A stretch of DNA of 64,000 nt. Source: Callorhinchus milii. Taxonomy: Eukaryota. Below the pieces are notes generated by a model. The model made no database searches and was not told where the DNA came from. It saw only the letters and a list, made by a program, of their open reading frames with translations. Both the position numbers and the translations under genes were made by a program. Shown here one piece after another: positions 6,366 through 46,645 of the stretch (positions are counted from its first letter, which is position 1; every line of letters starts with the position of its first letter). Where the stretch lies: assembly GCF_018977255.1 (NCBI RefSeq), contig NW_024704745.1, positions 61,938,001 through 62,002,000 of the forward strand. Reading direction: 5' to 3'.

Positions 6366-6369
6366 GCTC

Positions 6370-14300: not shown

Positions 14301-14580
14301 CATATCCAGTGAGCTCACTACAAATAGTTACTACCCTTGACAGCAACTGCATTTGAGGCTCTTTGAAATTCTTTAATCTGATAGGTACTAGACCAAATGC
14401 AAGAACTATTATATTTATTATATGATGATAATAATAATAATCGTTGCATTTGATATAGCGCCTTATCACATTGTCGAGTCACCTCAAAGTGCTTCACATG
14501 GTTTATTGTAAAATGTAGTAACTGTATTTTTATTGGATATTAAGACTTGCAATGGCTATTTGGGTGAGAGTGCCAGGTGG

Positions 14581-18699: not shown

Positions 18700-18909
18700 A
18701 ATAATCCCTTCAAAATAAATAAATAAAATAATAATAATAATTTGGTCACTCAATCCACGACTGTTTGTGGGACATTGCATTGGCTGCAGCGTTTCGCCCA
18801 CAAAATATACAGTCAATTCACTTTACAGTATATTTTGTGAAGCACTTTAAAACATCTCAACGACATGATAAGGTGCAATATCAAATGCAATGATTATTAT
18901 TATGATTAT
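18700..18909 (+). mobile_element. 5'-truncated young SINE
   Basis: ataatcccttc..tggtcactcaatccacgactgtttgtggg..tail matches the 3' half of the 12187 copy. Confidence 0.88.
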
Positions 18910-18914
18910 ACTGT

Positions 18915-19420
18915 ATGTAGCTCAGGTTTGGGCACCATACCTCAGGAAAGATGTACTGACAATTAGAGAGTGTGCAACACAGATTCTGCAGAATGGTACC
19001 TGAGCTGAAGGGATTAAATTAGGAGGCAAATCTGGGCTATGAACCATTGAGCTAAGAAGGTTTGAAAGGTGACCTGACTGAGGAGTTTAAAATATAAAAG
19101 GATTTGACAAGGCAGATGAAGAGAAATGGTTTTAGGTGAATCCAGAACAAGGAGACATTATCCTAAAATTAGAGCTAAACTAGTTGAGAGTGAAATCAGG
19201 AAACAATTTTTACTCCCAATAGAGTTGGGGAAATGTTGAATTCAAAAAGGTGTAGATGCCAGGTTGACTGAAATATTTAAGAGAAGCAGATGAATATTCA
19301 GTGGATAGGGATATCAAGGGATATGGCGAAAGGGCAGAGAAAAGGTATTAAGTTACAGATCAGTCGTGATCTAATAAAATGGGTGAAACGGGCTCTAAGG
19401 GCTAAATGGTCTACATCTGA
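18915..19420 (+). mobile_element. CR1 LINE 3' fragment (decayed ORF2 C-terminus and 3' UTR)
   Basis: Translates, with frameshifts, to WAPYLRKDV..LESVQHRF.RMVPELKGL...LELRR..GDLTE.FKI, the CR1 C-terminal signature. Confidence 0.85.
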
Positions 19421-20264
19421 TCCTACACGGTCACTACACTTTACAGTAAATACTGCAAAACACTTTGAGACTGCCAACTCTTGAATTAAAAAGGTGCTAT
19501 ATAAATTGTATTGTATTATCTTATGGCCTCAAGTATTTCTTGTGCTAACACAATGAAAGTGTTATGAAATGCTCCGAAACTGTTTACCCCATATTGGATT
19601 GTTAATAGATTAAAATAGATTTTTTTTTAAAAAATTCAAGTACGTTTGTTCACTAATAATCTTGCCAAAACACAAATGCACTCATAATTCTACCATAACA
19701 TTTCCTGTGCCATTTCTCAAAGACTTTTTAAAGATATTTAATATGTGAATCGTAGTAACCTTCTATTAACTGTTAAATTTGACTATTTTGTCAATTTTCA
19801 TCCTGTACACTATATACTGATGAAATGTTAATGGATGTTCATACGTGTTATAACTGTGACTATGAACCTGAGTAAATATCATTTAAAGAGTTTGAAGATA
19901 TCACAGAATTAGATTATGTGTGTAAATGGAGCTTATCTTAACAGTTTATTCAAAACAATTAAATCACGGTAATTGAATATTTCAAATAAAATTATAGTAA
20001 TACAATGTTTTAAATATATATATATTATACCCTAGAACTGAAATGACAATCCTCAGGGGCTAGTATAACAATATATGTGAGCAAATATAGCTGTTTTCCA
20101 CTGTTACAAACTGTGAGCAGTTTTATTCAGTGAGGGATGGAACAATAGAGTGGTTACTTATTGTAGATTACCATTATACATCCATTAAATAAATGCTGAC
20201 AGAAAGCCAGAAACATGAGAATATATACCTATAGAAGTTAAATAATAATTGCATTTGTTCAACA

Positions 20265-20631
20265 TATGTTGCCTCTGAGTCAAAAGTGTGTGGGTTCAAG
20301 CCCCACATTGGGACTTATAATCACACAGTCTAAGCTAACACTCTAGTGCAGTACTGAAGGTGTGCTGAATTGTCAGACATGCTGTCCTTCGGATGAGACG
20401 TTGAATTGCGGTCCCATTGTCTGATCAGGTGGATGTAAAAGATCCAAAAAGAGAATGGAGTTTTTCTCTCCTGGTGTCCTGGCCAACAATCCCCCAAATA
20501 AAATTGGTCACTCACCCCACTCACGTTCACAAAATACACAGACATTGCACTTTGCAGTATATCCTGTGAAGCACTTTGAGATGTCTTGATGATGTGTTAA
20601 GACACTATATCAAAAGCAAATATTATTATTA
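20265..20631 (+). mobile_element. DeuSINE (SacSINE1-like), near full length
   Basis: gcctctgagtca..ggttcaagccc head, cttcggatgagacgttgaa core, ggtgtcctggccaac and L2-like tail. Confidence 0.85.
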
Positions 20632-21764
20632 AGTACATTAACATGTGGTTAGAAGTAGCGCTTCCTGAGAATTCTGAATAATGGTAGTGGCCAAAACCAG
20701 ATGAAATACCCCCCACCCCCTAAAAAAAAACTCCTCTCTGCAATGAGGCTATCAAACCTATTGGCACTTTTCTGTTCCTTGCACTGGGGTGAAAATTGTT
20801 GTTTATAATTGGTAACATACGGTGATAATTATCACAGCATTGAAAATAGGCTCAATGTGGTCAGTCATCAACTAAAGATGGTAACACCCTTCACCCTCAT
20901 CTCCAAAACCAGCCTTTCATGTTATTAAACTTGCTGGCCCATAGATTGAGTATTGCAGAGCTAATTCAGTGGTAATTCATGCATTACAGGTGCCAATAGT
21001 TCTCCTGACAGTGAAGTGACCATGATAAAACTATAATTGTGACATTCTACAATATATTCAAAGCCACTTTCTTTGGAAAAATGTCCACATTGTAAAAATT
21101 CTCACACCTGCATTTGCCCCTTCAGTGCTATTTGCATATTGCATATGGTGTTTCTTTTCAACTATTTGCAAAATCTATGTAACTGTAAACTTCCTACTTC
21201 AATTCCTACCAGCTGAAAATCTATTTGACTGTGTTTCAACACCTTTGCTCCCACCCCCACCCCTTGGAGCTCAGGCTCCCACTCAATCCCTGTAAAGTGC
21301 TTTAATACATTCTCCTAACGAAAGGGACAAATTCTTGTTGTTCATCTTGGTTTTCATTTTTCAACTCTTCTTTGTCTCTGTTTATAGGCCATTACATTAG
21401 TTACATATTAAAATGATCATGTTGAGGGCAATGAAGATCTATTTTCGGTTTAATAAGTTTGACTTACTGTTTAAACAGTGACAGAAACTACCACGTTCTA
21501 GTTGTTGCCTCATTTAATATCCAAAAATCCTGCAAAAAATTTGTATAAATCTTCAATTAAAACACGGATCAGAATTCAAATCATTCATTGTGGTTAAATG
21601 TATCTGTAGCATGCACTCAGTTATAACCAAAGCTATTGAAGGGCAAAGCATAATTCACACCATGTATTATTTAACCAGGGTTAATCATCATTAACTGTTT
21701 CCCTAATTTGTGGCTGCACCTTGAGAGATAATCCTAACGCAATTTTAAACTTACAGTTTGAATA

Positions 21765-21930
21765 TGATATAATTTAGATTTATATACCACCTTTCACATC
21801 GGGAAGAAATCTCAAAGTACTTGACAATGCTGGATGGGTACAGAGCTGAGTTTGGGAGCTGAGGGGGGAATGGGGAAAGATGACTAAAGATTGGTCAAAT
21901 AGATTTGTTTTGAGACATGCCTAATTGGAG
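21765..21930 (-). mobile_element. L2 3' end fragment
   Basis: tatataccacctttcacatcggga tail, then G-rich UTR and ggtcaaatagatttgttttgaga. Confidence 0.6.
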
Positions 21931-22235
21931 GAATATGGCACTGAGCCCAGATCAGCCAATGTACTTTCGACAGGGATGGTGTGGAACAGAAATTTGATTC
22001 CAAAACTGGAATTCTTTAATTTTGGATGTTGAATTGAAGAACACTTCCAGTTTCAGAATCCTTATGATACTAGTAGGAATTGAAATGTCATTACCACATA
22101 TATTAGAGAGTTGGGCAACATTACAAATAGATATTGGGAGATGAGCATCTAAAGAGAATTTCTGACAAGTAGATAATAAAATACATGACACATTTGACTG
22201 TCCTTTAATTTTAGAATTGCAAATCAGAGCAGAAT

Positions 22236-22590
22236 CATAGAATTTTACAGCACAGAAGCCTATTGTGCTTTTGTCTGCTCTCTGAAAGAGCTATCCTTTT
22301 AATTCCCTCCTGTGTCTTTCCCCATTCCCTTTTATATTCTTTTTCAAATATTTGTCCAATTCCCTTTTAATCATAAGATCCTGCTTCAACCACTGCTTTT
22401 TTGTAGGGAATTCCATAACTCTGTGTAAAAAAAAATATTTTCATCTTTCTCTTTACTTTTTGTTGGTGGTCTTAAATTTATGCCCTCTCAGTACTGACTT
22501 AGCAAACAGTTTTCTATTTATCTTATCAAAACCCACTTATAATTTTCACCACTATTAAATCTCCTCTCAACTTTCTCAGTTCTGATGAAA
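22236..22590 (-). mobile_element. CR1 LINE 3' fragment
   Basis: Begins with atcatagaattttacagcacagaag (reverse of a CR1 tail) followed by a pyrimidine-rich CR1 3' region. Confidence 0.7.
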
Positions 22591-23719
22591 ACTTGCATGG
22601 GAAAATGTTAATTTAACATCGCTGTGTCGAAAGTGGGTGATGCAAGCTCAGAGCTTCGGTTCATGTTTGAATGATTAAGATGCTGGTGGATTGTTAGGAT
22701 AGTAGCTATACCCATATAGTAATGGACGTTGATCAGATCTCAACACAAATAAACACCAGAGTCTGCAGTAATCATTTCATAAGCACAGCACTTTTGTATG
22801 TGTAGTGGGAACATTACTGTCAATTGCTCAAATCTGTCTGTTGGTACAAAATAACCTTTACAGTATGTTCTCCACTTGAGCTTCATAATGTTTATGATAG
22901 TTGGCGTTGCATATTTATATGATATTCTTAAACGTTTCATTGGATGGAAGACATGTTGTGGGCTGGGAGCTGGAGAGTTGCATAACAAGCACAGCTAAAC
23001 TATCATTGTGTCCCTTTTCCTATTGAATCATTTATTTAGGTCCTATCTGCTTTGTGATTCAGGTGGAAGTGAAGGGACCATCCCCCACAGACCGATCGCA
23101 CGTTATAATTGCGGGTCGTACAAGCAGGGGTGAAGTTAATGTGCACTGTGAAAAGTGAAAGATTTAATTGGAAGGAACTGGATTTATGAGTCTGCAATAC
23201 TTAGTATTCCATGACTAACATTGGTCCTGTCTGTTTCATCACTTCAACACAAGCCATATCCTGGTCACATCAAATCCACAAAGTGTAAAGTCACTCCACT
23301 TTACAGTATATCAGCGAACAACAACTTACATTTATATACATCAAATTTTCCTGCAATTTTCTGCAAAAAATTAAAATTTCCCCTCAAATTTTGGCAAATA
23401 TTTCCGTATATTGGCTCAGGCTCTGAGCAATGATTGGAAGCTAGGGCTCTTCAATCTTGAGAGATGACTCAGAGAGATCCTATAAACAGAGCTTTTTTGT
23501 GAATAAGAAATAAGTTGAAATAAAATGAAAAACATTGTATAAAACAATATAAAATGAAAAAATCAAGCACAACCACCACCACAGTGGTTGTTGGGGAGGC
23601 ACAGCAGTGCAAGCAGTTTCAGGAGATGAAGAAGCATCGACAAGAGAGGTATTAATGTACTTTTATCCATTAGAAATATTTCATTTCTTTTTATTACATT
23701 AGTGTAATAAATGTACACT

Positions 23720-24040
23720 ACTTGGAGAGGTGTATAGAATTTTAAATGGGATTGGTAAACTAAACCCAGATCAATACTTTAGGGTGCACCAAAGCAGTAA
23801 AACAAGAAGATAAAGGTTTGGAGTTGCAAAGGGCAATTTTTGGATATATAACAGAAAGTTTTTTTTCAATCCAGTGGGTAATTAACACCTGAAACAGGTT
23901 GCCAAAAAAGGGTGGTTGAGACCAGGACACTGGACTTGTTTAAAAGTCAGCTTGATGCTATGGGGGAACAGTAGGATGGTATTTTAGAGGTGTGAGATCA
24001 GATGGGCGGAATACCTACTTCATCCAAACTTGTGATCTTG
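23720..24040 (+). mobile_element. CR1 LINE 3' fragment
   Basis: EVYRILNG...SKTR..., ttttttttcaatccagtgggtaattaacacctgaaacaggttgcc (FF..xVIN.WN.LP-like) and a ttgtgatcttgt tail. Confidence 0.75.
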
Positions 24041-25958
24041 TAAAATATAATTTGAAATTAGGGTTCCCTTGCTCTAACATTGTGGCAAAACAGTGAGTAG
24101 GTGTGGAGGAGGGGCTATATTTTCACTCAGGAATCCCTGGAATATAGCTAGTAAAGTGAAAATAACCTTTGCAACTGTCAAGTGTGAAACCACAGTATCT
24201 CATAACATGACTGCAGGTGTGGAGCTCAAGAGGGCAATGTATTTGCATTAAATTCCACCGTTTTTGTTTAACTGTAATGGCTCTTTATGGATTTTAACAG
24301 AATTTCCAGAGATTGAATTTCAATGCAGTGTAAAATTCACTTTATGGTTTGATAACAAAATGCATGTTCAAAGTATTTTCTCTCCATAACTATAATTCAT
24401 AAGGACTTGTCTTGAAAATACAGTAAAAAAAACTAGCCGTGGGAATACCTTAAGCTACAAAAAGCCTCTATTAGAGTTTTGGGCACAGGAGAGTAAACTG
24501 AGATCTCTTCATATTCATCAACTAGGATTCATAGAACTTTCTGTTTGTGTTGCCATTTCCTGGTGGAGTGGAGATATTTTATTTGGCTAGCTCACAGTGT
24601 ATGCACAATTGGGAACATTTTTCTGATTGGAATAAATGTGAGCGAAGAATGTTTCTGTTTATTTTTCTGCCTCGCTTTGTTTGAAATACTGGAGGTCGAA
24701 ACCACATCAGTTATTTACTGTGGTGCAGTAGACATAATTGATGGGATGCACAGCGGATGTGAAATGTGCACATTTTGTCCGATCCCCTCCCACCCCACAG
24801 AAAAGTCTTGGTTCCTCTCTGATGAGGTTCAGCAATTGCCTTCACAAGACATCAGGCTTTCATTTTTTGGTCTTTGAAAGTTTGATCAATACTGCAGCCA
24901 TGTGCCCACACAACAATTCATTTTAATATTAAGAATAATAATGGTAACATTTAGGTAGGCGAGCTTTCAGGCACTTTGCCCCTGTTCTCTGGAACTCTCT
25001 TCCAAAATCCTCTCCGCTTTAACCCACATAGAAATCTAACTCTTGGAATGGACTTCATCCCTCCTACCTAGTGTGAGCTCCCACTCTGACTGAAAAGGTA
25101 TTTAAGATCTTCTCCTAGATGAAAAGAGTTACATTTGTGTTTTACAGCAGCTCTCTTCTCGTACTGTTCATAACACGTCTTAGTGCATCTAGTCTTCCCT
25201 TCAAATACCACTGTCACTGTCAAATACCACTGGTTGTGGATTTCATCTCAAGCTGGGGAGTTTCACTGGATTGAAGAGACAGAGAGAATCGGATCATCAT
25301 GATCATAATAAGCACTGTAATTAATAAAGTGCCTTTCATGTCAGGAGGATGTCTCAAAGCACTTCACAGGATTTACTATAAAATGCATTGAGTATATATT
25401 TTGCAGGTAAACGTAGCAGCTAACATGTGCACATTAATATCACACAAACAACATCATAAGTGTCAAAGGCAAGGATTGTCTGATCTGTCATTCATGGAGA
25501 GCCCAGTATCTTTGAGTGAAATAGCACTGAAAACATTGTGAGAAATCTATACCATGAGAAACATCTCTGGCTTGAATACTTGTGTCTTCTCTCCAGCTCA
25601 CTGTGCACACCAATGGAGAAGGCCATCTGGTCTATAAAATTGCAGAACCTATTTGGGATCTAACATGCAGTTTAAATTTAGAAATTTTTAATGTATGGAT
25701 TTAGTAATTACCCACATGTGCCAGGGACGGATCTCTTTGATTCCTTTTCCAAACTTTTCCAAACAAGGAGAGAGGACACAGTCTGAATCCACTTTTCCTG
25801 TAAAATAAAAGTTCATAAGAATAAAAACACCAGCCTTAACTGTGAGATTCACAAAAGGTTTTATAAATGTTGAATCTGGAACTATGATAGTGACCTCATT
25901 GAGACCCAAACGCATTACTTTAGTCCGTGGTTAAGATTGATATCTTAATTGATTGTGT

Positions 25959-26319
25959 GGAGTCCTGTAGCCCAGTGGTTAGAGCACTCGCCTCTCAAGC
26001 GAGAGACCTGGGTTCAATTCCTGGCAGGGCGAAATGTTGGGCAAGTTTCCCTACTCCACCCACCTCTGTTTACCAAGCAGTAAGTAGGAACCCAATTGTT
26101 AGTGGATTGGCGGATCGCTTTTCCAGGAGTAATAATTCCTTCCAAAAAATAAATTGGTCATTAAATTCACAACCGTGGGACACTGCTGTGCACAAATGGC
26201 TGCTGCATTTCTCCCACAAAATATACAGTTAATTCACTTTACAGTATATTCTGTGAAGGGCTTTCGGACATTTCGGAGACGTGATAAGGCACTATATCAA
26301 ATGCAATGATTATTATTAT
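25959..26319 (+). mobile_element. Young tRNA-derived SINE, full length (long subfamily)
   Basis: A box, B box, central ctctgtttaccaagcagtaagtaggaaccc segment and (TTA)n tail. Confidence 0.93.
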
Positions 26320-27208
26320 AGCTGAGCAGAGTTCCGGGGATAAATGCAGGATTGCCTATTTACTAATCCTTTGGCAAATTTGCAATTTAGAACTTGTTGT
26401 TTGTGTGTCTCTCAATAATCCATTGGCCATTTTCAGATCTTAATACTTCCCAGTATTTTGTGTGAATATTGCTGTGAGCAAATTGGCTGTCGTGGTCACC
26501 TACAAAAACTTGGTCACATGCATTTCACCCAAACTTTGAAGTGCATTGAGAAATTCTCAATGTTATAGGTGCTATATGTATATCAAATGCAAGCATAATT
26601 ATTTTTATCATAATTTTCATTATATTAAATGGAAAAACATTGTAGAAAACTAGAGGGTGAAGGACTGATATAAAAATAGTTCTCTTGTTTACCTATTAAT
26701 AAGGCAATCAATCATTCCTTTACATCTTGTACTACAAACAGTAGTTTTAAACCCCAGTCAGGCTCAGGAACTGACTATCAAGACTGCCACAGACGGTAGA
26801 CTCGATTCTGACAATCCATTGTGAAGTACGTCACCTTAGAGCCAGTTCAGCTGCAAGGATACCACACTACCACACTTATTCATGGTTTTCATGGTAGTTC
26901 AGCAATTTATTTTGACAATAGGTTCTTCTTTAGATAATATTCTGTCGAAATAACAACAACAACTTGGATTTACATTGCACCCTCCACGCCGGACGGCGTC
27001 TCAGAGCGCTTCACAGTAACGGATCCCGGGACCGAGCCAGGGGGAGGGGGTTGGAAGGTAACCAAAGTGCTGAATTATGATGAAAATCCTAAATAGCTTT
27101 ACATTATTTTTGATTTCTCTTTTTATGTTAAACGCTCTATAATTTCACTAACTCTCTTTCACACTTCATGCAAAAAAAAAAATTCTTTTTGCTGGCTTTG
27201 AGTTTCAG

Positions 27209-27362
27209 AATGAGCCGAGTGACTGATCGTTCTATGTGCTTTCCAGAGCGAGAGAAAAATGATCACATCCCCACAGCAGTCTTCAAAGTATTGCAGTTGG
27301 AGAGTGAAATGGGAAATGAACTGCGGTTCAATGACCCAATGTGGCCTAAGCAGTGGGAGCTG
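27209..27362 (+). CDS. Exon of a proprotein convertase (PCSK/kexin family), N-terminus of the mature catalytic domain; acceptor at 27209 or 27247
   Basis: Frame reads ...ELRFNDPMWPKQWEL, matching the family motif FNDPxWxxQW[YH]L. Donor CTG|GTAAGC at 27362/27363 is phase 0 and fits the next exon. Two candidate acceptors: tttcag|27209 and ttccag|27247. Confidence 0.85.
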
Positions 27363-27785
27363 GTAAGCATTGCATCACTAGTTATTCATTTTTGACTTTT
27401 AACCCTCTAAGCACAAGCTTCTCATACGTTCCTTTCTCCCATACAAACATGCACACAAAAAAGTGGGATCATCACAAAAAAGTGTAATCATAAATCAAAA
27501 TAAATGTGTTATTCTACTATTGTTGCTTCTTATGTGATGAGTCTTAAATCGGTTTCCATTTTATCAAGCAAATGAGCAGTTTAATTTGGCACCTTCCTGC
27601 TTTATTTTGTCATTGTTAGCAGAAGAAAGGAATTGCCAATGGAGTTTCCTCTCCATGTTTGCATTACCCCCATTTCTAGAAACAATAAAATAATTGGGAT
27701 ATTTGTCGAATGACATTCTAAGCAGTTTTGTTAAATCAATTATCATGCAGAAATTCATATAAAATTGACTCAAATAACTTATCGA

Positions 27786-28247
27786 TAATATCACACAGTT
27801 AAATCCACATTTACCAATATCTCACAGTTGCAATTCCCAGTTGCTTATATCTCACACAGATATAATCTATATTTATCAATATCTCATGAAGCTTACAATT
27901 CACATTTCACACAGTTACAATTTTCAGTTGCTAATTTCTCATGCAGGTACAATCGACATTTGTTAATATCTCATGCAGCTGCAATTCCCAGGTGCCAATA
28001 TCTTTCAAAGTTACAATTTGCAGCATTTAATATCTCACTCAGTTACAATCCGGTATACCACGTCTAATGCAGTTACAATTCACAATTCTTAATATTTCAC
28101 AGTTACAAATGGCAGGTGCTACTATCTCACACTTTTGCTGATATCTCCTACAAATTACAATTTGTTTGCTGATGTACCCATGCAGTTTATAATGCACATT
28201 TGCTGACATCATCGTGAAGTTTAGAAATCATGCTTGCTGAGATCTCT
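27786..28247. repeat. Degenerate minisatellite, ~30-32 bp unit, roughly 14 copies
   Basis: Recurring unit approximating AATATCTCATGCAGTTACAATTCACATTTGCT. Confidence 0.85.
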
Positions 28248-28981
28248 TGAGTTCAGATGTGTTTGCACTTTATAATACACTTTACCTTTGTGTCCAGGCA
28301 GTCTGTGATCTGCATTTGCTAATCTTGTATGGTTTTTCTCTCTTTTTCATGATTAGGTACATTTCAATGGGCAATTTTTGCCTTCTGGTCCCTCACTCTA
28401 GTGATCATTCTTCATGTGAGAGCATAGACATTGAAAGCTGAGAAGCTATTCCACCATGAAATCTGAGCCTGATCATTTTCTCGTCATGGATTATGACTGT
28501 GTGAGATATTAGTCCTGTACTTTCCAGAAAGGGTCAGTAAGCAGAAATAGGGAGTGAAAACCCTGGCTGATTATTGCAGTTTATAATCCAGAAGATCATT
28601 CTCAAAGAGTTCACAATGTGGGTCATCTGATATTCTTCCAGCAGGTTATTATCTGTGTATCATGTGGTTCTCATCTGAGACCCAAAATACCATCCAGTCT
28701 TAGACATGATCACACAGAATTGTGGAAAATTCTCTAATTCAGTCTTAATCTGGAAATTTGCTCATTTTAAGAGCTGCAATAAACTGGCTTTCCCAGTCTC
28801 CTGTTTCATTGAAATGTCAACCTAGACTTGAGCTCAAAGTCTTGACTTTGGTTTGAACCTACAATCTTCTAAGTGCAGAGACGAGAGTGCTACAAACTGA
28901 ATCAGGCTGATACATAATGAAACAATGCCATATGATATTTTGATCCAGTTTGTCAAATCTGGTACTAATAACAGAGTGTAT

Positions 28982-29205
28982 TAATAATAATAATAATAAT
29001 AATAACGCTTCCATTTGATATAGCACCTTATCATGTCTTCAAGAAGTATCAAAGCACGTTACAGAATTTATTGTAAAATGAATTGACTGTGTATTTTGTG
29101 GGCAAAACGCAGCAGCCAATTGAGCACAGCAGTGTCTCACAAACAGTCGTGCATTGAGTGACCAAATTTTTTTAAAATTTTTTTTCTTTGAAGGGATAAC
29201 CCCAC
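28982..29205 (-). mobile_element. 5'-truncated young SINE
   Basis: (TAA)n followed by the reverse complement of the SINE tail and body (gcagccaattg..acaaacagtcgtg..gagtgacca). Confidence 0.88.
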
Positions 29206-29714
29206 TGAGAACATTTATTTCCCAGAATTTGTGCAGCTGCATACAAGTGTGGTATAAACTAATCAAGTCCAGTATATCATAAATAATATGAAGAAAGTCC
29301 ATATGGAGCTAGACCAAAAATAATCCATATCTCTGGAGAAAGAAAATCACCCATGTCTTTGGGGAAGAAAAATCTTGAATAACACAAAACATAATCTACA
29401 ATGCTAGTATCAGAATAAAATCAATAGCATGCCTAACCTGTTGTCATCAAGCTTTTTTTAAATTTATGTATCAAGGTAGTGAGGAGGTTAATCTGCATGG
29501 TAACGTGGGTTAATATCAGTGGAGGATCCTTGGCGTGGGGGGTGCGGAGGAAGGTCAGGGGCCCTTATGACACCGCAATCACTTTGAGGTCAGCCAAACC
29601 GTATGTCAATCATTCAAAACTGACCCCAAATAACTTAATTACCTAGAAATTCATGATCATTTGCCATTATGAATCTTGTGCGAAGGCAACATGGCATGAG
29701 AGGATTGTTAACCA

Positions 29715-29925
29715 GAACAAAAACAGAAACTCCCTTCTCTTTTTGAATTGTGCCATGGAATTTTTAAAATACACCTGAACTGGCAGACTGGACCTCAGTT
29801 TAACATCTCATGCAAAGGACGGCATCTCCGACAATGTAACACACACCAGCATTGCACTGGAGTGTCAGCTAAGACTATGTGAATTCAACTCTTGACGTGG
29901 GGCACAATGTTCTGAGTCAGAGGCA
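29715..29925 (-). mobile_element. DeuSINE fragment
   Basis: Reverse complement of the Deu core (gccatgg..tttaacatctcat..aaggacggca) and of the head (tctgagtcagaggc). Confidence 0.8.
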
Positions 29926-30804
29926 GGTGTGAGACCAGAATGTTGCAGGAATATCGGTTATAAAATCTTGGTTAAAACTACCTATGGGATCATTATCAAT
30001 TTCTTCAGGTCACTGATGAAACTTGAGCAGTCCCAAGTTTCTTTGTCTGTCCCAACTTTCAGCTCGAGTCTCCTTCACCTGCTCTTCATGCGACCTGCTC
30101 TGTTACAGATACAGCTCAATTTATGCAGGTTGAAAAGGGATGCACAGTATATGCCACTGCATATTTTAGCCTTATTACTTCTTCGTACAAAATAGTTTGA
30201 GCTAGAATGTGTGAATATCAGAAGATTGCAATCTGACATTTAATACTGTTAAAGAATACAAATCAGATCAATTCTCCAGGCATTGTGTTAACCCTTTCCA
30301 TTGAAACTCTTTACACTGAGCTTTAAATTAATTTCAACTCTATTTTCAGAGAATGTTGTCACATTATTAGCTGTTGCTTTAATAGATGCTGCAAATTCCG
30401 GAAATTGTTTTACTCTACCAATGGACAGTGTAATCAACGAGGGCTTAATTTCTCTTTAATTTTAGTTAATATACAGTATACTTCGAAAATGCAAAATAGT
30501 TAGTCTTTTGTAAATAAATAGTCTATTTCATATTATAACAATATAAATGTTTGTTAAACAAAGATGTTAATTTTCAATGGACAATATTGACATTTAATTT
30601 GCATTTATTTTGGGGCAAAATTTTATTTGATTTTTAGCAATCTTTTTGACTACAAAACCAGCCGACCTTTGGGTCATAATTTCACCATGGACATCACTTC
30701 AGTATGCTGATCATGAATGCAATCCCACTGACAATGGGCAAGCAATTTCACTTTCCACGTGCACTATTTGAGGTGCAGTCTTTATTGGCATGAATACATA
30801 GCAA

Positions 30805-30980
30805 TACAATACAATTTCTACAGTGCCTTTCACATCAGGAGGACATCTCAAAGTGACAATGGTTGATGGGCACCCGAGCTGGGGTGGGAGCTAATGAGGG
30901 TGAGAAAGGAAAAGAATGACCAAAAGTGCGGTCAAAGAGGAACATTTTGAGATATCCCTTGAACGAGGGGAGAAAGGGAT
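30805..30980 (-). mobile_element. L2 3' end fragment
   Basis: agtgcctttcacatcaggaggacatctcaaag tail and ggtcaaagaggaacattttgaga. Confidence 0.7.
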
Positions 30981-32564
30981 TTGCGGAAGTCTTCCTTGGA
31001 TCTTTAAAATAATCATTCTAAAGATTTAGGGATGCTTGCTTAGAAACATATAGTCACTACACGTCACAGAAAAAAACAATTGGTGAAGAACTTTGAAACA
31101 TTTTCATGATAAGTCACAAGATCAAATACAAGTGTTTTTTAATAGTATACATTTAGCTGCAGTGAGAAAGATCTAAAGGAATTGTATTGAATTCTGAGTT
31201 TGATTAATATTTTTGTATTTAAATTAAGTACTTGTACAATTGTCACTAAAAATAAACAAATATGAATAATTCATCAATTAGATGCTATTAAAACTTCAAA
31301 TACTCCCACTTAAAAAGATACTAAATATAAAAGTGATCTCTATTGTGGTTTTACCCTCAGCATTGTAACTGATTATCTATGAACCATGAAAGTTTTAGAC
31401 ATGTGTAACTGCAGACTGATATTTATAAGAAGGGAAATTGCTCCGACACATTTGAATGTATTTAAAATTCAGAATGAATATTGTTCCATCATAACAGTTA
31501 CTGCAACAAATATAATTGAATTTTTCATATTCAGCCCAGTCATCCAAGCACGTTATTCGTTTGAACATGATCTGTTGAGGAGCTATCCCTAGCAGACCAT
31601 TGATGATACAACTTCCACTATCAATCTAAAATACCTAATGCAATAATTGCCATGGCTTTCTCTTTCTCGCTAATTCAAGTCTTAGCAAATTCCCATTGTG
31701 GACTGTCTGTGGTTGAAGGAAATAGCATCAATGTATTTCAGACGAAACTTGATACATACAACAATAACAACAAATTACACTTGTATAGCGTCCTTCACGT
31801 CGGAAAGACACAAGGGAGAAAAGAAATGGAGGAGTATAGGAGGGGTGGAGTCTCCTGTAGAAAATAAACACCGGCTGGACTGATTGGGCTGAATATTGTG
31901 TTTGTGTGCTATAATATTTTATGTATTTCTTATGGCAAATCTTTTATATTTACTGCATGGTCATAAAAACACGAAGGGCCGAATGGCTGCCTTCTGCGTT
32001 GTAAATTTCTATGGTTCTAAGATTCCAAACAAACATCTTATTTAAGCAATGTATGAACATAATACTAGTAAAGGTTAAAGCACCGGTATTGTCTATATTT
32101 AGGTTTGTCAATATCTGGTCAATGGACATTCATTGGGTTTTCTGATTTTCTCCAAATCAAGGAGTGCTCTTAAATTTGAAGACTATTGGATTAGAGTATT
32201 GTTCTTTTCTAACTTTGGATCCAGGCAAATGGACTGGAATGCCCTCTTCCTGTCTTGTTGGTTCCTACGTCATTTTTGGAATGTGGAAACCCCTGGAGAG
32301 GCAGAGTCTATTGTAAGCTTCAAGAGGGAAGTAGGCAGGTATAATAAAGGCTTGATGGGGATAAGGCAGGACAGTGAGATTGAATGAGCAGCTTGCTCTG
32401 AGAGTCGGTGACTCAATGGGCTGAAGGTCATCCTCCTGTGATGTATATTTCTATGTTCCCATATTAGCTGGGCAACATCTATTTGTGGTATCATTGTCGG
32501 CTGATGGCCTGGATGTTGGAGTAGGCAATTTTTCTGTTTGAATTCAATCCAGAGTGGCAGGCTG

Positions 32565-33290
32565 AAACAATAGCAACAACTTGCATTTAAATAACACCCT
32601 TCACATTGAATAGCATCTTGGAGTGCTGCACGTTGGTGTGGTTGGAGGCCAAGCAAGAGAGAAGGGAGAGGGGGAGGTGACAGTCGACTTGGTCAAAGAA
32701 GTAAGTCTTAAGATGTGATTTAAAGATAAATAGGAATCAAGACTGAGGGACTGAGGCAGGGAGTTTCAGAGGTTAGGAGCATAGTATGGAAGTCTTCTTT
32801 CACTGCTAACTACAACAACAACTTGCAAATATATAGCGCCCTTCACGGAGGGTAGCATCCCGGAGTGCCAGACAGTCGGCTGATGGCCTGAATATTGAAG
32901 TAGGAGAGTTTGACACTGAGCCAGGGGGAAATGGAGGGGGCGATGACCGCAAGCATGATCAAAAAGGAAGGTCTTTAGATGGGATTTGAAAGTGGGGTCG
33001 GGCAATGTTACAGAGGTGGGTAAAGGTGGAGGGAGTCATGGCCCGGATGTGGGGATGAAGGACAGTTGAGGGTAGAACAAGACACCGAGGTTCCATATTT
33101 GCTCCGTGAGGTGTAGAATACATCCATGGAGCAGATCGGATAGGTAGGGAGGTGTGAGGGCATGAAGGGATTTGAAAACGAGTGAGAGGATCTTGAAATC
33201 GATCCGTTTGGTAATTGGGAGCCAGTGGAGCCTGGCAAGAACTGGTGTGATAGGGGTACAGAATTTTGTGTGGATGAGTACCCGAGCAGT
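32565..33290 (-). mobile_element. Two adjacent or nested L2 3' fragments (~32565-32800 and ~32810-33290)
   Basis: Two caacaacttgca tails, each followed by gtcggctgatggcctg-type or purine-rich UTR. Peptides FKSHLKTFLFD and LARLHWLPITKRIDFKIL-like on the minus strand. Confidence 0.85.
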
Positions 33291-34439
33291 GGAGCTTTGA
33301 AATAATTGAACTAAGAATCTTAGGTGAAATTAATTTGGCCAGCCTCAATCTGGAACTGTCTGCATTTTGCAAAAATTGGCATAAATTCATAATTCTCACT
33401 TTTGTTCCTTTTACACTGCTGGAAGTGAAGTAATTTCCCTTCAAGCAGAGGAGCAAAGGGAAGCAGGAAGCCTGATTTTAGGTTTTCTGTTCCCATTGGC
33501 AAAGGACTCGAATGAGTTCTCACATGTGCAGAACTGCAATATCTGCAGTGACTTTACACCAATTACCTTTGAAACTCTTTGAGATGTTTTAACGTTAAAG
33601 GCACTATATCAAATGCTAGAATTTTTATGATTTGCCACAGTTTGGCCCAAATGCATAATTGATCAAGATCAACTTGAATGCTATTTACTCTCCTCGTCCT
33701 CACTTGCCCACATAGCTAAGAATCAGCACATTTTATAAGAGTACAAGAAGACATGCTCTTCTCCTAGTCACTGATGAATATCAAGAGAGCCAGAGCAGAA
33801 AAAATTCTAGTCGATATCCCAGAGGAAACATTTTTTATATCCATTATCATCTTCTACCTGACAAAAGCTGTTTGACAATAAAATTGTCTGCCAAGGATTT
33901 AGAAATAAAAAATCTATTGTTTCTATCGTTGTGATTACAAATAGAAGCCACTAGCTTAATAAATCAGCAGTATAAACCTTCTTGGAGAATGATGTGACAG
34001 ATGTGGATGTGCAGACCAGATGAGGCATTCATGGCTGAATCTCTTTCTCCCACCCATTGGCTGTACCAAGCACTTCATAATAATCCTGATATTTTTTGCT
34101 TATATGTGGTATAGTGCCTTTCACATCGAGAGGACATCACTAAGGGCTTCACAGGATACTTGTAAAGTGTAGTGACTGTGTATTTTGTAGGCAAATTTGG
34201 GGTGAATGGTGGAGGTAGGTTTTTGAAACATCAATTCACTCCAAGGGCAGATCAAACTTAAAGGGGTTAAGCTATCAAAAGGGTTAATCAGTTCGACTGC
34301 AAGTAATTACCAATATCATTTCATCTCAATTAATTGTAATTGTTCAATTGGAATTTTCCCCTTTACGCTACGTTTAATGCAGTTGTTGTAAATAATTTAA
34401 TTCATAGTTTCCAGATAAGACTACAATGTAACAATTATT

Positions 34440-34757
34440 GGAGTCCTGTAGCTCAGTGGTTAGAGCACTCGCTTTGCAAGCGAGAGACCTGAGTTCAATT
34501 CCAGGCAGTGCGAAACCTTGGGCAAGTTTCCTTACTCCACACAGAGCCTAATAATAATCCCTCCAAAACCAAAAACAATTATAAATTGGTCATTTTCAAT
34601 ATACGACTGTTTGTGGGACATTGCTGTGCACAATTGGCTGCCTCGTTCGCCCACAAATATACAGTCAATTCACGTTACAGTGTGTTCTGTGAAGCGCTTT
34701 GGGACGTCCTCCCGACGTGAAAAGCGCTATATCAAATGCAAGGATTATTATTATTAT
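34440..34757 (+). mobile_element. Young tRNA-derived SINE (short subfamily), CpG-rich
   Basis: TAGCTCAGTGG A box, GAGTTCAATTCC B box, no central ctctgtttacc segment, and tail gggacgtcctcccgacgtgaaaagcgctatatcaaatgcaagga(tta)n. Confidence 0.95.
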
Positions 34758-36379
34758 CAGTTTGAAACTATAATTTCATCAATGATGCAAAGCATGTAGT
34801 AGACATTACTTTGGTCTTCCACCACTTGTAGAAAATAGGATTTGCATTCAGTTTGTTCTGAGCAAAATGTTTGTTTTGAGATAAATGTATACTGAAACCC
34901 GGGCTATTTGAACGATTGGTTTGGTTCGTAATTCCTGGTGTTTTACTTCACGTTACTATGAATTAAATATTGCAATAGGTTATAATTAAAACGCGAAATA
35001 CAAATCTCCACACATACACCCACACCAAGGTTCCTCAGAAATTTATTTTGTAATTTTTAGAATGGGTCATATAAAATAAATCAAATTCAAGACTTTTAGA
35101 AGGTTCATAAGAACTGTATTTTTTAAATAAGCTTTTTGTGGACAACCACCACACCAGAGGTCAGGGTTTTAAATACGAACACATGCTATGAAGGAAACCA
35201 TGCAGGAATTTTTTTTTAAATCTTCCTTGTTTTGTTAGTTTAGATTCTGAAAGAAGCTTTTGTGTGTAAAGATGTAACTCGAACCCAGGCCTGGAGCTAT
35301 GCCCTGTGGTACACAGACCACTATTTCTGCCCGGTACCAGCGCGAAAGAGACTAACAAGCCTCGTATCTCCAAAATGACACCAGCTTTTGTAAGGTTTAA
35401 TTTAATTTAACCATGGTGATAAAAAGGGCTTTTGTGCCATTCCCCTGCTTGCACTTAACAGAAAGGATCGAAGACTTGACTTGCTGCTGTTATTAGAAGA
35501 CGATCCATTTTAGAATATCACATTGGTTTGATTCCAGCGTTTAAAACCATATTCTTTGATTGTTGTCCAGAAATCGCCCGCTTCCGTTTTTCAGTCCCAT
35601 CTGCTTCCCTCTTGATGCCTTTATTTGTTAATATTTCCCTAACCAGCTTCATTGATTGCTGGACCAAGCTGCCAGAACAATAATTAAATTGGTCGTTTAT
35701 AGCTGAGGTAGAGGAGGAAATTCACTTTGGTGTGAAAAATTGAGGCTTTCCCAACAAAAGTTATGGAAAAGCTACTGAACATAGATTTGTTTTGTTATAT
35801 GAAAAAAAACAGCAATGTCAGGAGAGCTATTAGATAGCTTATCTCTTTTTCTACCTTGGCACGTGAATACTCCCAGTTCAGCGTGCTGTGTGTCAAATCT
35901 ATCATCTGATATGTCAGCTACCATTATTCCCACTTTTGTCACCAATTTTGACCAAAGGGTGAAAAATTGCTGTCAATACACTGGGAAAATTATTGCTGAA
36001 AAAGAGAAGCCTGTCTTTAGGTGTAAGCCAAGGTGAAAACACAGGAAAACTCTCCTTAGATTAGGTCTTGGCTAAGAGAATATTGATCTGTATGCTGAAA
36101 ATTGTTGATCCCTGGGAACAGATGACAAATGGTGGCAAAGAAAAAAAATCAAGTCTCTCGAAGGACATTCCAGCTGTACTGTGTTCACTGAAAGTATCTG
36201 TTTAGTATTAGTGGAACTTGTTTCTTGTCCCCAGCAGGGATTGAACTTGGCTTCTGCCAAACCTATTTGTTTTTTTGCACAGTTTTCCATTTCAATCTAT
36301 TTTACGTGTTTGAAGTGTTGGGTTTTATTTTACCCGAGATTCCCAGATTCTTTTCCATTGAATTGTATCACATTTGATG

Positions 36380-37240
36380 AATAAAAATAATAATTTTGTC
36401 ACTCAATCCACGACTGTTTGTGGGATACTCCTGTGCGCAATTGGCTGCCATGTTTCGTCAACAAAACACACTGTCACTACACTTTACAGTATATTCTGTG
36501 AGCGCTTTGAGACATCTCTAAGACGTGATAAGGTGCTATATCAAATGCAAGGATTATTAATTAGAGCTGCAGTTCACCTACAAAATACAGTCACTAAACT
36601 TTACAGTAAAACCCTGTGAAGTGCTTTGAGATATCATCCTTAAGTGAAAGGCACTACATGAAGTGCAAAGATTATTGGGGTCCTGTAGTTCAGGGGTTAG
36701 AGCACGCGCCTTGAAAGTGAGACACCTGGGTTCAATTCTAGGCAGGGCGAAACCTTGGGCAAGTTTCCTTACTCCATATGCCTAATAATAATCCTTCCAA
36801 AAAACAAAACAATAATAAATTGGTCATTTTTAATCCACGATTGTTTGTGGGACACTGTTGTACGCAATTGGCTGCTGCATTTCGCCCACAAATATACGGT
36901 CAATTCACTTTACAGCATATTCTGTGAAGCACTTTGAGACGTCTAGAAGACGTGAAAAGCGCTATATCAAATGCAAGGATTATTATTATTATTATTTAAG
37001 ATTGAGAAGGGAGAAATTGAGGTGTGTGTTTATTTAGTTGACACGGGGTTTCACAAAGAAACTCTAGAAATCTTTCTGTCATTGTAACTGTTAAGAGTGT
37101 TGTATAGTGTTTGGAACCAACTACAGCTGTTCACCTACAAATACAAAGTCACATCACAGTAAAAATCCTGTGAAGCGCTTTGAGACACCTCGATAACATG
37201 ATAAGGTGCTACATCAAATGCAACGATTATTATTATTATG
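36380..37240 (+). mobile_element. Cluster of four same-orientation SINE copies or fragments (36380-36561, ~36565-36676, 36677-36996, ~37125-37240)
   Basis: Four successive SINE tails. The copy at 36677 is a full short-subfamily element. Confidence 0.9.
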
Positions 37241-38834
37241 ATGGGAGGTTTTTCTTTCTACATAATGCAGAATGATGATTTAAGCGCAGTGATTCTAAAT
37301 TGTCACATTAAAATAATCAGCCACTATTATTGATTAATGATTCAGTACTCCAAAAGCAATTATCTTTCCACCAGGTTTTCTCTCTGTTTATTAATTTTAA
37401 ATGCATATACGGTATAATTTTGTTTAATTTTGACCAGGTGCTTGATATAGATTTAAACAATGCTATTTTGACTGTATACATGTTGCACCAGGAATAATGT
37501 GAGAGGATTTTAACCATACAAGTGATGGATCATGGGGACCCCATGCATTCATTTGTGGTTACGTGTTCATGAATTCACATCTCATATGTGGAACTAACTG
37601 CAGCTGTAGTCAATTATGAATTGAATGATACAATCCCACCCCCTTTTTAAGTATTCTTTAAAAAGAAGTGGAATATTTGATGAAGAGATGCCTGTGAATG
37701 CTGAAAATATTTCTTTGCTTTGGAGGACATCAAGAAGGATCACTCCCATGATGGTTTCACTGGCAGAGGAGAGTGTAGCCAATTGTTCATGTTGTGTCAG
37801 TGACAATGATCTTAGACATCAATGTTATGTTGCATTCAAGATGTTTGTCTGGCAATAAGTTTCTCTGTAAATTTAATAATTCTTGCATTTGGTATATCGT
37901 TAAAAATGTCTCAAAGCACTTCATAGGATTTACACCAAAGTAAAGTGGCTGTGCATTTGTAAGTAAAGTAAATCTCTTTAATCCCCTGCCCCCACAATGC
38001 ATGTTGTTCTGCAATTTGTTGTTTTAATGTACAGCTTTGTGTACCATTCAGAACTGAATATAACCATAAGCGCTTTGAGACAGCCCTTTGACATGAAAGG
38101 CGCTATATAAATGTAAATTATATTGTAAATACATTGTGTTGTATTGGTCAGGGGATAACTAGAGTTGAATTTCAGGGAGAGGGTGGTATTAGGATTTAAG
38201 AAGCTCTGAATGAGGGCTCCAAAGTCTCCGTCTATAAACCTACCAAGTTTTGATAAGTCCCCACCACCAAAAAGCAGTGTGTTTACCGAAAATGAAGAAG
38301 TCTTTTGAGTCACCACTGCTAGATTCAGGTCAATGGTAATTATTATATATAAAGCTTGCGTGCATGCATTTGTAGAAGGCACCAAGTGTAAACCATGTGT
38401 GAATGGTTTGGGACATCCTCCCGATGTGAAAGGCGCTCTATAAATGTAATTTTGTTGTTGTTGTGAATACACATGTACAGAGAGGTGCCCCTAATGATGT
38501 AATTTGCAACCAACCGCAATGTAGCGCTATCCCAGTAGAGTGTCAGCCTCAGCTACAAGCTCACATCCTTACGTGGAGGAGCTTGAACCTACAACCTTCT
38601 AACCTAGAGGCCCAGGTAATACCAGCTCAGTCAAGCTGGTACCCAAGACGTATGCTACGTGTCTCAGAATGAGTGTGGCACTAAAACCATGTCCATCCAT
38701 GACTGCACTCATTTTAAAAAAAAAGGATTAATCAGATTAATTCCTTGTTACAACCCTTTGCTACAACCTATTCGATATTTACAGCAGTGTCAATAACCTC
38801 TTCCAGATTTAGTCTCGCCACTGAATATTAGGTA

Positions 38835-39240
38835 GAACTTCTTCTGAGCCTGAAGGTTTGTGGGTTCAAGCCCCACGTTGGGTCTCTGACCTCCCAAAAT
38901 ACAGACCTAGGCTGACACTTCAGGACAGTGCTGCAATATCAGATATGCCATCCTTCGGATGAGACGTTAAACCGGGGCCCTGTCTGCCTGTTCAGGTGGA
39001 CATTAAAGATCCCATGGCACTATTCAAAAAGAGAAGGGAGTTTCTCCCAGTGTCCAACAATACCCCAGATAAAATTTCTCCTTCACTTTATGACTGCTTG
39101 TGGAACATTGCTGTGGGCAAATTGGCTGCCATATTTATGAACACAATACGGTCATTAATTTGACAGTAAGTCCTGTGAAGCACCCTAAGATGTCCCCCTG
39201 ACATGAAAAACGCTATGTGAATTGTAAGGATTATTATTTT
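38835..39240 (+). mobile_element. DeuSINE (SacSINE1-like), near full length
   Basis: ggttcaagcccc B box and core ccttcggatgagacgttaaaccggggccctgtctgcctgttcaggtggacattaaagatcccatggcactattc, then tail. Confidence 0.9.
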
Positions 39241-39729
39241 TAATTCAAGCACTAAAGATCCAGGGAACTCAGTTCATTTCAAATCAAGCTGATTCCCATA
39301 CATCAATATCGATTTAGAGACACGATTTATGCCATTTCTCCACTAGCTCTCATCATAGACAATATCATATATTCTTAACTCCCCTAATACATTATATGGC
39401 ATCATTAATCAGAAGCACCTAACACTAACACATTTCCTTACTTGTATCTCTCACAAATGTCTGTCACCCATTTTTCAGGGACCAGTTCTAGCTCTTCTGT
39501 ATACTATACTCATGAATTCATGTAATTCCAAATTTAAAAAAAAGTACATCTTGTTAAGATACAGTGTAAATCTTGGCCTCTCAAATATGTTCATTATTAC
39601 CATTGGCAATGATCATATTATAGATAAATAGTTATTTTAAATTTTAAGACAATATATTGCATTTTACATTTATAAAGCAACTTTCGCATTGGGAGGACGT
39701 CTCAAAGCGCTTGTCAGTTCTGAATGGGC

Positions 39730-40035
39730 ACAGAAGGTTGTGGGTTTAAGCCCCACGTTGGGATTCAGAACTCAGTCTCGGCTGAAACTCCGAGAGATCA
39801 CTGCATTTCTGGAAGGATCGTCATTTGATAAAACAGGTCCCATCTGTCTATTCTGATGGATGTTATAAAACTCATGGTACTATTCGAAAAATTGGATCAT
39901 TCACTTCATGACTCTTTGCTACATTGCTGTGCACAAATTGGTCTCAGCATTTGCCTACACACTTTACAGTAAAATCCTAAGAAAAGATGTTTGGCATGTA
40001 CTCCTGAAGTGAAAGGTACTATATCAACTGCAAGG
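39730..40035 (+). mobile_element. Decayed DeuSINE
   Basis: gaaggttgtgggtttaagccccacgttggg head, partial core, ttgctgtgcacaaattgg and tail. Confidence 0.7.
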
Positions 40036-40635
40036 GGGAAAGTTACGAGAGGTAAAGATGATGTAGAAAATAGAAGATTTATTTTTTCCCCATAGAGCAG
40101 TCAGTAACATTTAATTTTTGCTTGTAGAATTACTCTTTAAAGGATTTTCTCCAAGTTTCCTAATTATAAGTTACAGCCTTGCAGAACAGTTGATGTCTTT
40201 AGTTGTCGTCGGGGTAGAATTTTCAACTATATGTTAATTATCATATCACAGAGCCCAATTTTCACCCCCATCTTTCTAATTCACTGTATTGAATAAACAA
40301 AAGCCCTGATTGTCCTTTTGTAATATGATTGGTATTTCAGCTTGTGACAAAAGCTATGTAACAGTTGCGGTTAAGTCTTGTGCCATATTTCATTTGTGCT
40401 GGCAGCAAACTGGTAGAATATTGGATGAACTTTCTTTGATGCCTACCTCAGTGCTATTGTAGTTCTCATCAAATTCATTTCAAGCAGGTTGAAATCTGCT
40501 GCTTGCCTTGGGGAGGTTTTTGTTTTCAAATGAAATCATTGTTGTAGAGTTCTTGGCATTGCTTTGTCAAGCCTCCTGAGTCTGCTTTCACTGAAAACTA
40601 TCTGTAGAATTCACATTCATCATTTTCCTTTGCAG

Positions 40636-40744
40636 TACAACAACGGTCAGACCAGCGGACCAAAGCGATTTGACCTCAACGTGATGCCAGCTTGGCAGAG
40701 ACACATAACTGGCTCGGGTGTAGTTGTGACAGTCGTAGATGATG
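40636..40744 (+). CDS. 109-bp exon of the proprotein convertase, containing the catalytic Asp motif (VVTVVDDG)
   Basis: Polypyrimidine acceptor ttttcctttgcag|40636 (phase 0) and donor G|gtgagt (phase 1). Translation YNNGQTSGPKRFDLNVMPAWQRHITGSGVVVTVVDD(G) matches the kexin-family pattern DLNV..AW...TG.GV.V.++DDG. Confidence 0.93.
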
Positions 40745-45546: not shown

Positions 45547-46109
45547 AATAGGGTAATTCTGAACCTGAGTGGAATTTCTCCCCATTTATATTTCATGATT
45601 TGTACTGTACATTTGCTAACAAATGAAAACGTTTTCCAAATGCTTTACTTATGACTTGTGTTTCTTTAAATATAATGACATAAGATCATTGCACTTCGAA
45701 ATGTGCAAAGTGGACAGTGCTGAGTAATGGGGTAAAGGATTTCAATTCATTTATGAATAATGAAGTTCTACTCCACATAGGAACAGGAGTAAACTATTCA
45801 ACCCATCAAGCCTTTTTGCCCATTTTAGTAGTTCATGGCTTTTCTTTATCTTTCTGATCTTATTTCCCCACCTTTTCTCCATATCCCTTTGTTTCCCATT
45901 TCTCTATTGTTTTCTTTAGCACCTCAATTGATGTATTTTTTGCCTTCTAGAACAGCGCATCCCGTATTCCACACCCCACTGTTCTGAAATTTGTGTGGTC
46001 TTATTTCCTAGTTTCAGTAACCATACAGTGTGGATTCCAGTACTATTCCCGCATTATCTTAAATAACTAATTGGTATTGTTTCTTAAACTGAATATTTTT
46101 GCAACATTG

Positions 46110-46645
46110 ATCAATTCTCCAACTACCTCCCTCCCTGGGCTACCAAGACCCTCATCCACAACTTTTTCATGTCCAGGCTTGATTATTTGAATGCTCTGCT
46201 TGCCAGATTCCCCAGTTCCTCCAAGCACAAGCTACAGACTATATCCACAAATCTGTTGACCACGTGCTCTTGCGCACCAGGCTCTATAAGCCTTTCACCC
46301 CTATCTTCATTCAAGTCCATTAACTCTCCATTTCCCAGTGGATCAAACCCAAATGCTTATCCTCACACTCAAATCCGTCATTGTGGCCTCCTGCAAACCA
46401 ACCATCCCACTTACTCCCTCTGCTCAACTAACCACAAGCTGCTTCACGTCTCACACCCAATCTGTCCTATCACTGAATGAGCTTTCATCTATTATGTCCC
46501 CACCCTCTGGAACTCCATCCTACAGTCCCTCTGCCTTGCTCCCTCCCTCTCCAGTTTGGGTGACTAGTCAGCTATGTGAGACACATTGCGATGCCCACAC
46601 AATGTAAAAGACACTATATAAAATGTAAATTGTAATTGCTGTTGT
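46110..46645 (+). mobile_element. Old L2 3' fragment
   Basis: Peptide TKTLIHNFFMSRLDYLNALLARFP..KHKLQ and tail ctatataaaatgtaaattgtaattgctgttgtt. Confidence 0.8.

Follow-up and report, generated by a model that had tools for sequence, protein, structure and literature searches.

The window, a 64,000-nucleotide stretch of the 992 Mb Callorhinchus milii genome (C4:61938001-62002000; any C4 position equals the window-extended coordinate plus 61938000), carries coding exons of a proprotein convertase. We conclude that these exons are very probably part of an intact, spliced, extra kexin-type convertase, likely the vertebrate copy a of the PCSKX family, and that the product is predicted to be a soluble, calcium-dependent, secretory protease that cuts at Lys-Arg. 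A preliminary description had held that simple orthology with a canonical PCSK was unlikely and had proposed an additional ancient kexin-family paralogue. The former claim is borne out by trees and topology tests that show no canonical grouping, and by the presence of the seven canonical genes elsewhere in the genome; the latter is supported by the placement of the protein in a clade outside the canonical PCSKs.

A spliced convertase gene across the window

The preliminary description was built on two peptides, both of which are encoded on the forward strand with canonical splice signals. The first, FNDPMWPKQWEL, belongs to exon 4, which ends at 27362 and is followed by GTAAGC, and the second, which runs from YNNGQ to VVDDG, is encoded by an exon at 40636-40744 flanked by AG and GTGAGT. 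The splice from 27362 to 40636, which had been set as a test of the two-exon proposal, was found in contigs from two sequencing runs, X1 and X2, whose match to the genome ends at 27362 and whose next bases are the first 30 from 40636; this join is read from loose contig ends, the contigs not being aligned over all of intron 4. A contig from run X4 reads through 27362 into intron 4. Runs X1, X2 and X3 come from one study and are RNA by guess; X4 is DNA-like. Contigs of X1, X2 and X3 cover 27246-27362 only and extend upstream into an exon at 11319-11427 that was absent from the preliminary description. An exon 4 acceptor at 27209, as first proposed, was rejected because the contigs of all three runs start at 27246/27247 and 27209 breaks the frame, yielding a stop right after exon 3; the acceptor is therefore placed at 27247. 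Thus both exons are real and are joined in phase 0, and what had to be corrected is the start of the first. One X1 contig of 4495 bases is, judged by its length, long enough for the start codon and the remaining gene.

Mapping with shark orthologues gives a gene of at least 343 kb with 18 coding exons, which begin 97 kb before the window, reach 182 kb beyond it and are all on the forward strand. All introns are GT-AG, and the exons form a single open frame of 760 codons with no stop. Coding exon 1, with the start codon and a hydrophobic N-terminus, lies about 97 kb before the first base of the window and exon 2, encoding the pro-domain, about 45 kb before it. The window opens in the 3' part of intron 2 (1-11318). 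Exon 3 (11319-11427), found with shark orthologues as tblastn queries and bounded by AG/GT ends, is reached by the loose ends of the X1-X3 contigs; it encodes the last part of the pro-domain, with HEVKKR (11346-11363) as the predicted site of self-cleavage. It is followed by intron 3 (phase 1, 11428-27246), by exon 4 (27247-27362), which encodes a spacer and the start of the catalytic domain and is delimited by the contig cover in three runs and the frame test, and by the 13.3 kb intron 4 (phase 0, 27363-40635), which the X1 and X2 contigs skip. Exon 5 (40636-40744) contains the codon for the catalytic Asp (40738-40740) and ends in phase 1 within a Gly codon, and the 5' part of intron 5 (40745-64000) fills the rest of the window. 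In window-extended coordinates, exon 6 starts at 76909, the exons with the catalytic His, the oxyanion Asn and the catalytic Ser lie at 90507-90595, 94214-94450 and 110194-110294, the P domain reaches 235126 and exon 18 ends at 246089.

The junctions of exons 5 to 17 match the database fragments P0463, P0464 and P0378. The Callorhinchus milii database entries that we saw for this gene are fragments of 159 to 466 residues, none with a signal peptide or pro-domain. A downstream exon of the gene is a 100% match to one of them, a UniRef fragment named "PC3-like endoprotease variant B", so that the suspected link to proteins of this name was correct. The 36 residues of exon 5 also match seven other convertase loci in the same genome, and the exon is therefore not a chance open frame.

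Position among the kexin-like convertases

Based on the following evidence, the gene is distinct from the canonical convertases. Loci for all seven are found elsewhere in the genome, with PCSK1 at C1:108.7 Mb and PCSK2 at C3:78.9 Mb. Six group in the tree with named PCSK1, 2, 4, 5, 6 and 7 proteins; the furin locus, whose tree neighbour is unnamed, was assigned by motif and by its sister position to PCSK4. In the core, the chimaera protein is 45-49% identical to each of its seven paralogues and 56% identical to a coral protein, which is thus closer than any paralogue from its own genome. The mosaic of PCSK1-, PCSK2- and PCSK7-like motifs noted in the preliminary description is consequently apparent only, the divergence from all seven being even.

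Sequences for the final trees, of 58 and 59 rows, were picked from a 206-row FastTree; one long-branch row, P0284, was omitted from the LG+G4 trees and the approximately unbiased (AU) tests and kept in the C20 tree. The chimaera protein falls in a clade of 24 rows with support of 100/98 under LG+G4 and 100/99 under LG+C20 (bootstrap 100). This clade also holds sequences from hagfish, Styela, amphioxus, a sea cucumber, a hemichordate, Lingula, Owenia, molluscs, Nematostella, Hydra and a coral, and its chordate members nest as the species tree does. AU tests rejected topologies in which the vertebrate copies were forced to group with PCSK1 (p = 3.3e-11), PCSK2 (p = 3.6e-82), PCSK7 (p = 2.7e-7) or the furin-like group (p = 1.2e-80). 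The column of furin His364 is fully diagnostic, with Phe in 24/24 rows of the clade and His in 30/30 canonical rows, a count that excludes P0284 and four outgroup rows.

The clade corresponds in several respects to PCSKX, an orthogroup defined by Tao et al. from Nematostella, spiralians, sea urchin and amphioxus, the last with multiple paralogues (bioRxiv 10.1101/802215, a 2019 preprint; what follows concerns the part of its text that was available). For Nematostella, Crassostrea, Lingula and Branchiostoma floridae, the complete kexin-like genes are there sorted into PCSK7, PCSK1, PCSK2, furin-like and PCSKX groups, some incomplete gene models having been left out, and a leech member (Hro-pcskx) is reported to be broadly expressed across tissues. 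Our clade contains Nematostella, Crassostrea, Lingula and several amphioxus paralogues, that is, taxa which the preprint names or sampled for PCSKX, and it agrees with PCSKX both in this membership and in its LG position as sister to PCSK2, PCSK1 and the furin-like group. By membership and by elimination, then, PCSKX is the likely identity of the clade. The difference is that Tao et al. report PCSKX as lost in vertebrates and ecdysozoans, whereas here it is found in hagfish, sharks, rays, chimaera, gar, sturgeon, many teleosts, coelacanth and lungfish. The vertebrates in their tree were human, chicken and Xenopus only, all four lamprey models having been dropped, and zebrafish was counted for genes and kept outside the tree; the call of loss was thus made with only human, chicken and frog represented in the tree.

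Two further observations concern the invertebrate members and one a shared intron. Lobster (P0237) and millipede (P0185) proteins join the PCSKX clade at 94/90, so that the reported ecdysozoan loss may be incomplete. The attachment of nematode AEX-5 (P0059), at 92/91, is by a very long branch; this protein does not have the diagnostic Phe, and its membership is uncertain. After exon 5 comes a phase-1 intron, placed within the Gly that follows the catalytic Asp, and then a short exon, an arrangement that among the seven paralogues is common to PCSK2 only; it fits an alternative grouping in the preprint, in which PCSK2 and PCSKX are sisters, or the retention of an old intron.

The orthogroup is therefore already named and its proteins are already in databases; what is new is its persistence in vertebrates, the two copies with reciprocal decay and the linkage to POU3F genes described below. 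In the literature covered, which excludes most subscription journals, the name PCSKX was found only in the preprint of Tao et al., and neither a vertebrate PCSKX, nor its linkage to POU3F, nor convertase-Pou3 microsynteny turned up in any paper. The papers found there under "PC3-like endoprotease" are cnidarian.

Two vertebrate copies and their POU3F neighbours

The best 120 of 1320 protein matches come from sharks, rays, gar, bowfin, sturgeon, reedfish, many teleosts and hagfish, under database labels such as "neuroendocrine convertase 1-like", "PCSK4-like", "furin-like" and kpc-1-like. There is no tetrapod among these 120, and no zebrafish among the matches listed. Lungfish and two coelacanth fragments came in addition from a search for short proteins (best 120 of 148 listed), whose two named tetrapod matches are PCSK6 and a PCSK5-like piece. 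These searches are consistent with loss of the gene in mammals. An ostrich model of 273 residues (P0068, XP_068781307.1) contains three short degenerate blocks whose best matches are all copy a, which suggests that birds may keep a relic of that copy.

Jawed vertebrates have two copies, a and b, of which the C4 gene is copy a. Copy a is intact in cartilaginous fish, and copy b in rays and teleosts. The copy b sequences of rays, coelacanth and ray-finned fish are firmly united (100/100). Among copy a sequences, those of cartilaginous fish group firmly, with bowfin and gar fragments attached at 89/81. In the chimaera, copy b looks decayed and occupies at least 650 kb (C3:48153379-48804394). Its exon 5 match stops short of the catalytic Asp, Asp takes the place of the Gly that precedes the catalytic Thr-Ser, and neither the His exon nor the oxyanion exon could be detected in a 370 kb stretch free of assembly gaps. 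Read from these features, chimaera copy b is likely a pseudogene.

An intronless POU3F gene follows each of the two copies in the same orientation, about 38 kb away on C4 and about 110 kb away on C3; the latter interval is a distance only, its sequence being unread. The C4 neighbour is an intronless class III POU gene in a GC-rich region, on the forward strand at C4:62.22 Mb (segment L079:461-1624), about 38 kb after exon 18. From its motifs we take it to resemble POU3F3, and we take the C3 gene to be POU3F2. Together they account for 2/4 of the top POU3F-type loci in the genome. A teleost copy b model is fused to a POU tail, which is closest to the C3 gene (87% vs 76-79%). Among the flanking open frames scanned (140 of 653 candidates) the POU gene alone passed the Pfam cut-off, and the same scan gave no upstream neighbour gene in 103 kb.

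The copies share more than their neighbours. A 58-base non-coding element in intron 13 of copy a (222319-222376, window-extended; L024:8319-8376) recurs just after the matching exon of copy b (L089:4003-4061) with 86% identity, and these were the only two matches in a search of the genome. The element has an AT-rich cluster of TAAT motifs and is retained in decayed copy b; it is a candidate POU3F enhancer. In the available part of an earlier study, POU3F2 and POU3F3 are described as sharing paralogous conserved elements that date from the vertebrate genome duplications, and the convertase is unmentioned there (PMC3595034). The POU3F neighbour at both copies and the common intronic element point to an origin of the copies by whole-genome duplication. 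Such a duplication would have copied the convertase with its POU3F neighbour, after which lineages would have kept a, b or both, and tetrapods would have lost both.

As a whole, these results lead us to a broader proposal, which we put forward tentatively and hold to be a little short of an even chance. The ancestral vertebrate would have possessed an eighth convertase of the kexin type, distinctive in its cleavage preference and duplicated with POU3F3/POU3F2, whose giant introns hosted the enhancers of these genes. Its copies would have disappeared one at a time: the chimaera lost b, most ray-finned fish lost a and tetrapods lost both, with a decayed trace in the ostrich. In mammals, POU3F3 and POU3F2 each have a gene-poor region upstream, and if the proposal is true these regions would be the remains of two convertase genes. 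Fish would then keep a route of hormone or growth-factor processing that is absent from mammals, and the POU3F linkage provides a testable origin for two regulatory landscapes.

Some repeats at the locus may be recorded here. LINE (long interspersed nuclear element)-like, decayed reverse-transcriptase frames were recognised by eye in the introns (786-2536, 17262-17615, 32769-33477 and 46088-46477), and a short high-copy repeat (26980-27050), with very deep cover in all four runs, lies 200 bases 5' of exon 4.

The predicted enzyme and its relation to known convertases

The chimaera protein contains the complete triad (Asp207, His250, Ser432) and the oxyanion Asn351. Its N-terminus is hydrophobic by hydropathy, its pro-domain ends at a predicted basic cleavage site, HEVKKR112, and its P domain carries an RGD motif. 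There is no transmembrane or cysteine-rich segment in the part of the protein found: the hydropathy of the tail peaks at 0.39, compared with about 2.0 in two PCSK7 proteins, and a single Cys occurs within 150 residues after the last P-domain motif. Pfam matches in the chimaera genome place Peptidase_S8 and then the P domain at C4:62.03-62.17 Mb; the pro-domain profile search did not list this locus, and the pro-domain exons came from tblastn. A shark orthologue, P0003, has the Pfam S8 pro-domain, Peptidase_S8 and P_proprotein, and its AlphaFold model (mean predicted local distance difference test, pLDDT, 78) superimposes on furin with a template modelling (TM) score of 0.96. Core identity to elasmobranch orthologues is 71-75%, with every catalytic residue kept. 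In all 14 listed copy-a sequences of cartilaginous fish, P4 of the self-cleavage site is Val, Ile or Leu, and P4 Arg is absent. Between the predicted pro-site and the catalytic domain lies a spacer of about 48 residues (window 11364-27330), which is longer than in those paralogues where the stretch was seen and contains a second Lys-Arg that none of five sharks and rays compared possesses. The internal pro-domain Lys-Arg of sharks is Lys-Cys in the chimaera.

By analogy with furin biochemistry, the N-terminus would direct the convertase into the endoplasmic reticulum, self-cleavage after HEVKKR112 would remove the pro-domain, and recognition of P1 Arg would depend on calcium. The furin residues that serve P1 (D258, D301, D306, E331) are all kept, as are two that serve P4 (E236, D264); furin E230 and E257 are replaced by Lys and Asn. 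According to the available part of one study, loss of acidic residues at 230/257 is connected with the lower sensitivity that PC1 and PC2 show at P5/P6, and furin His364 is a P1'/P2' contact (PMC2820236). Since Lys and Asn at these positions reproduce the charge loss that marks PC1 and PC2, simple dibasic sites would be favoured over polybasic ones, and the Phe that replaces His364 in 24/24 clade members makes a prime-side preference unlike that of every mammalian convertase probable. The enzyme would thus be a soluble member of the secretory pathway that cuts precursors after Lys-Arg with no need of a polybasic motif. A possible matching of charge between P3 of the pro-site and position 257 was also considered; the raw acidic/basic count was 84/119, but it is unsupported because phylogenetic control with 9 independent pairs gave a median p of 0.375.

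It was of interest to weigh other explanations of these data. That the gene is merely a fast-evolving orthologue or a recent duplicate of PCSK1, PCSK2, PCSK7 or the furin group is scarcely credible. The intron position shared with PCSK2 alone and the labels that databases attach to its relatives ("neuroendocrine convertase 1-like", "PCSK4-like", "furin-like") would speak for such a history; but the canonical genes all lie elsewhere, four AU tests reject the grouping, it is refuted under both LG+G4 and LG+C20, the coral protein is nearer than the paralogues of the same genome, and the oxyanion residue is Asn and not the Asp of PCSK2. A less remote, although still improbable, idea is that the clade is distinct from PCSKX and represents a seventh, unnamed orthogroup. 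The tie to PCSKX was made without a match of accessions, and the incomplete models dropped from the preprint leave a small opening for such a clade. Against this, the groups in the available part of the preprint take in every complete kexin-like gene from Nematostella, Crassostrea, Lingula and Branchiostoma floridae, species whose genes are in our clade, and the clade lies outside the other PCSK groups, branching where the LG tree of the preprint puts PCSKX. Between these two in plausibility, and very unlikely, is the notion that the gene, though transcribed, is dispensable or dying, a bystander that persists chiefly for POU3F enhancers in its introns. The introns are huge, both copies flank POU3F genes, the intronic element has outlived the decay of copy b, copies have been lost repeatedly among lineages, and the chimaera pro-domain has Lys-Cys for the internal Lys-Arg of sharks, all of which would fit this notion. 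Nevertheless the frame is open across 18 exons, core identity is 71-75% over the old chimaera-shark split and all catalytic residues are kept, which argues for selection on the protein.

An intact PCSKX convertase thus remains our preferred reading, and several points weigh against it. The final coding exon was not found, there being no credible match in 128 kb downstream with the tails of nine shark proteins as queries, and a RefSeq fragment diverges from our model after exon 17. Joins were seen for exons 3-4-5 only, in runs that are RNA by guess and from a single study. The basis of the PCSKX label is a match in membership and topology and not in accessions, and no Helobdella protein was identified among the sequences gathered. 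Copy a is not one supported clade in the tree that includes fragments, in which hagfish, lungfish and one coelacanth fragment are unresolved, and the tetrapod absence rests on protein searches with the best 120 matches listed. The structure was predicted for the shark orthologue, which is 75% identical in the core, and not for the chimaera protein; activity and substrate specificity are likewise predictions from sequence.

The set of vertebrate kexin-like convertases is treated as closed at seven. An eighth subfamily is present under wrong names in medaka, salmonids, stickleback, sharks and hagfish, and studies of fish transcriptomes and endocrinology may therefore misassign it; the published claim that PCSKX was lost in vertebrates is also corrected. 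A cichlid survey, in its available part, put aside a "PCSK-like" gene without FU domains, taking it to be incomplete or the product of faulty assembly (PMC4992253), and this gene may belong to the PCSKX family. The subfamily offers a natural variant of the convertase active site, and medaka is amenable to knockout.

Among known enzymes, the Hydra PC3-like endoprotease variant B, from which the database name was presumably taken, is a cnidarian protein of the same clade, with 53% core identity, Phe at furin 364 and no transmembrane segment. The Hydra and chimaera proteins cluster outside PCSK1 (PC1/3), and the name "PC3-like" is therefore misleading. PCSK1 and PCSK2 resemble the chimaera protein in being soluble, without cysteine-rich or membrane segments, in the acidic loss at furin 230/257 and, for PCSK2, in one intron, yet they form separate clades and have His at furin 364 where the chimaera protein has Phe; its self-cleavage site, HEVKKR, lacks P4 Arg in contrast to theirs, and PCSK2 has an oxyanion Asp in place of Asn351. 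With furin (PDB 4OMC, 1P8J) and yeast Kex2 the chimaera protein shares the fold, to judge from the TM score of furin against the shark model, and with furin also the P1 pocket, E236, D264 and Y308. It differs from furin in its core identity of only about 48% to the furin of its own genome, in having no membrane anchor, in the replacement of Ala-Ser-Trp-Gly-Pro by Cys-Cys-Trp-Gly-Pro, and in the residues Gly, Leu and Phe at furin positions 193, 298 and 364.

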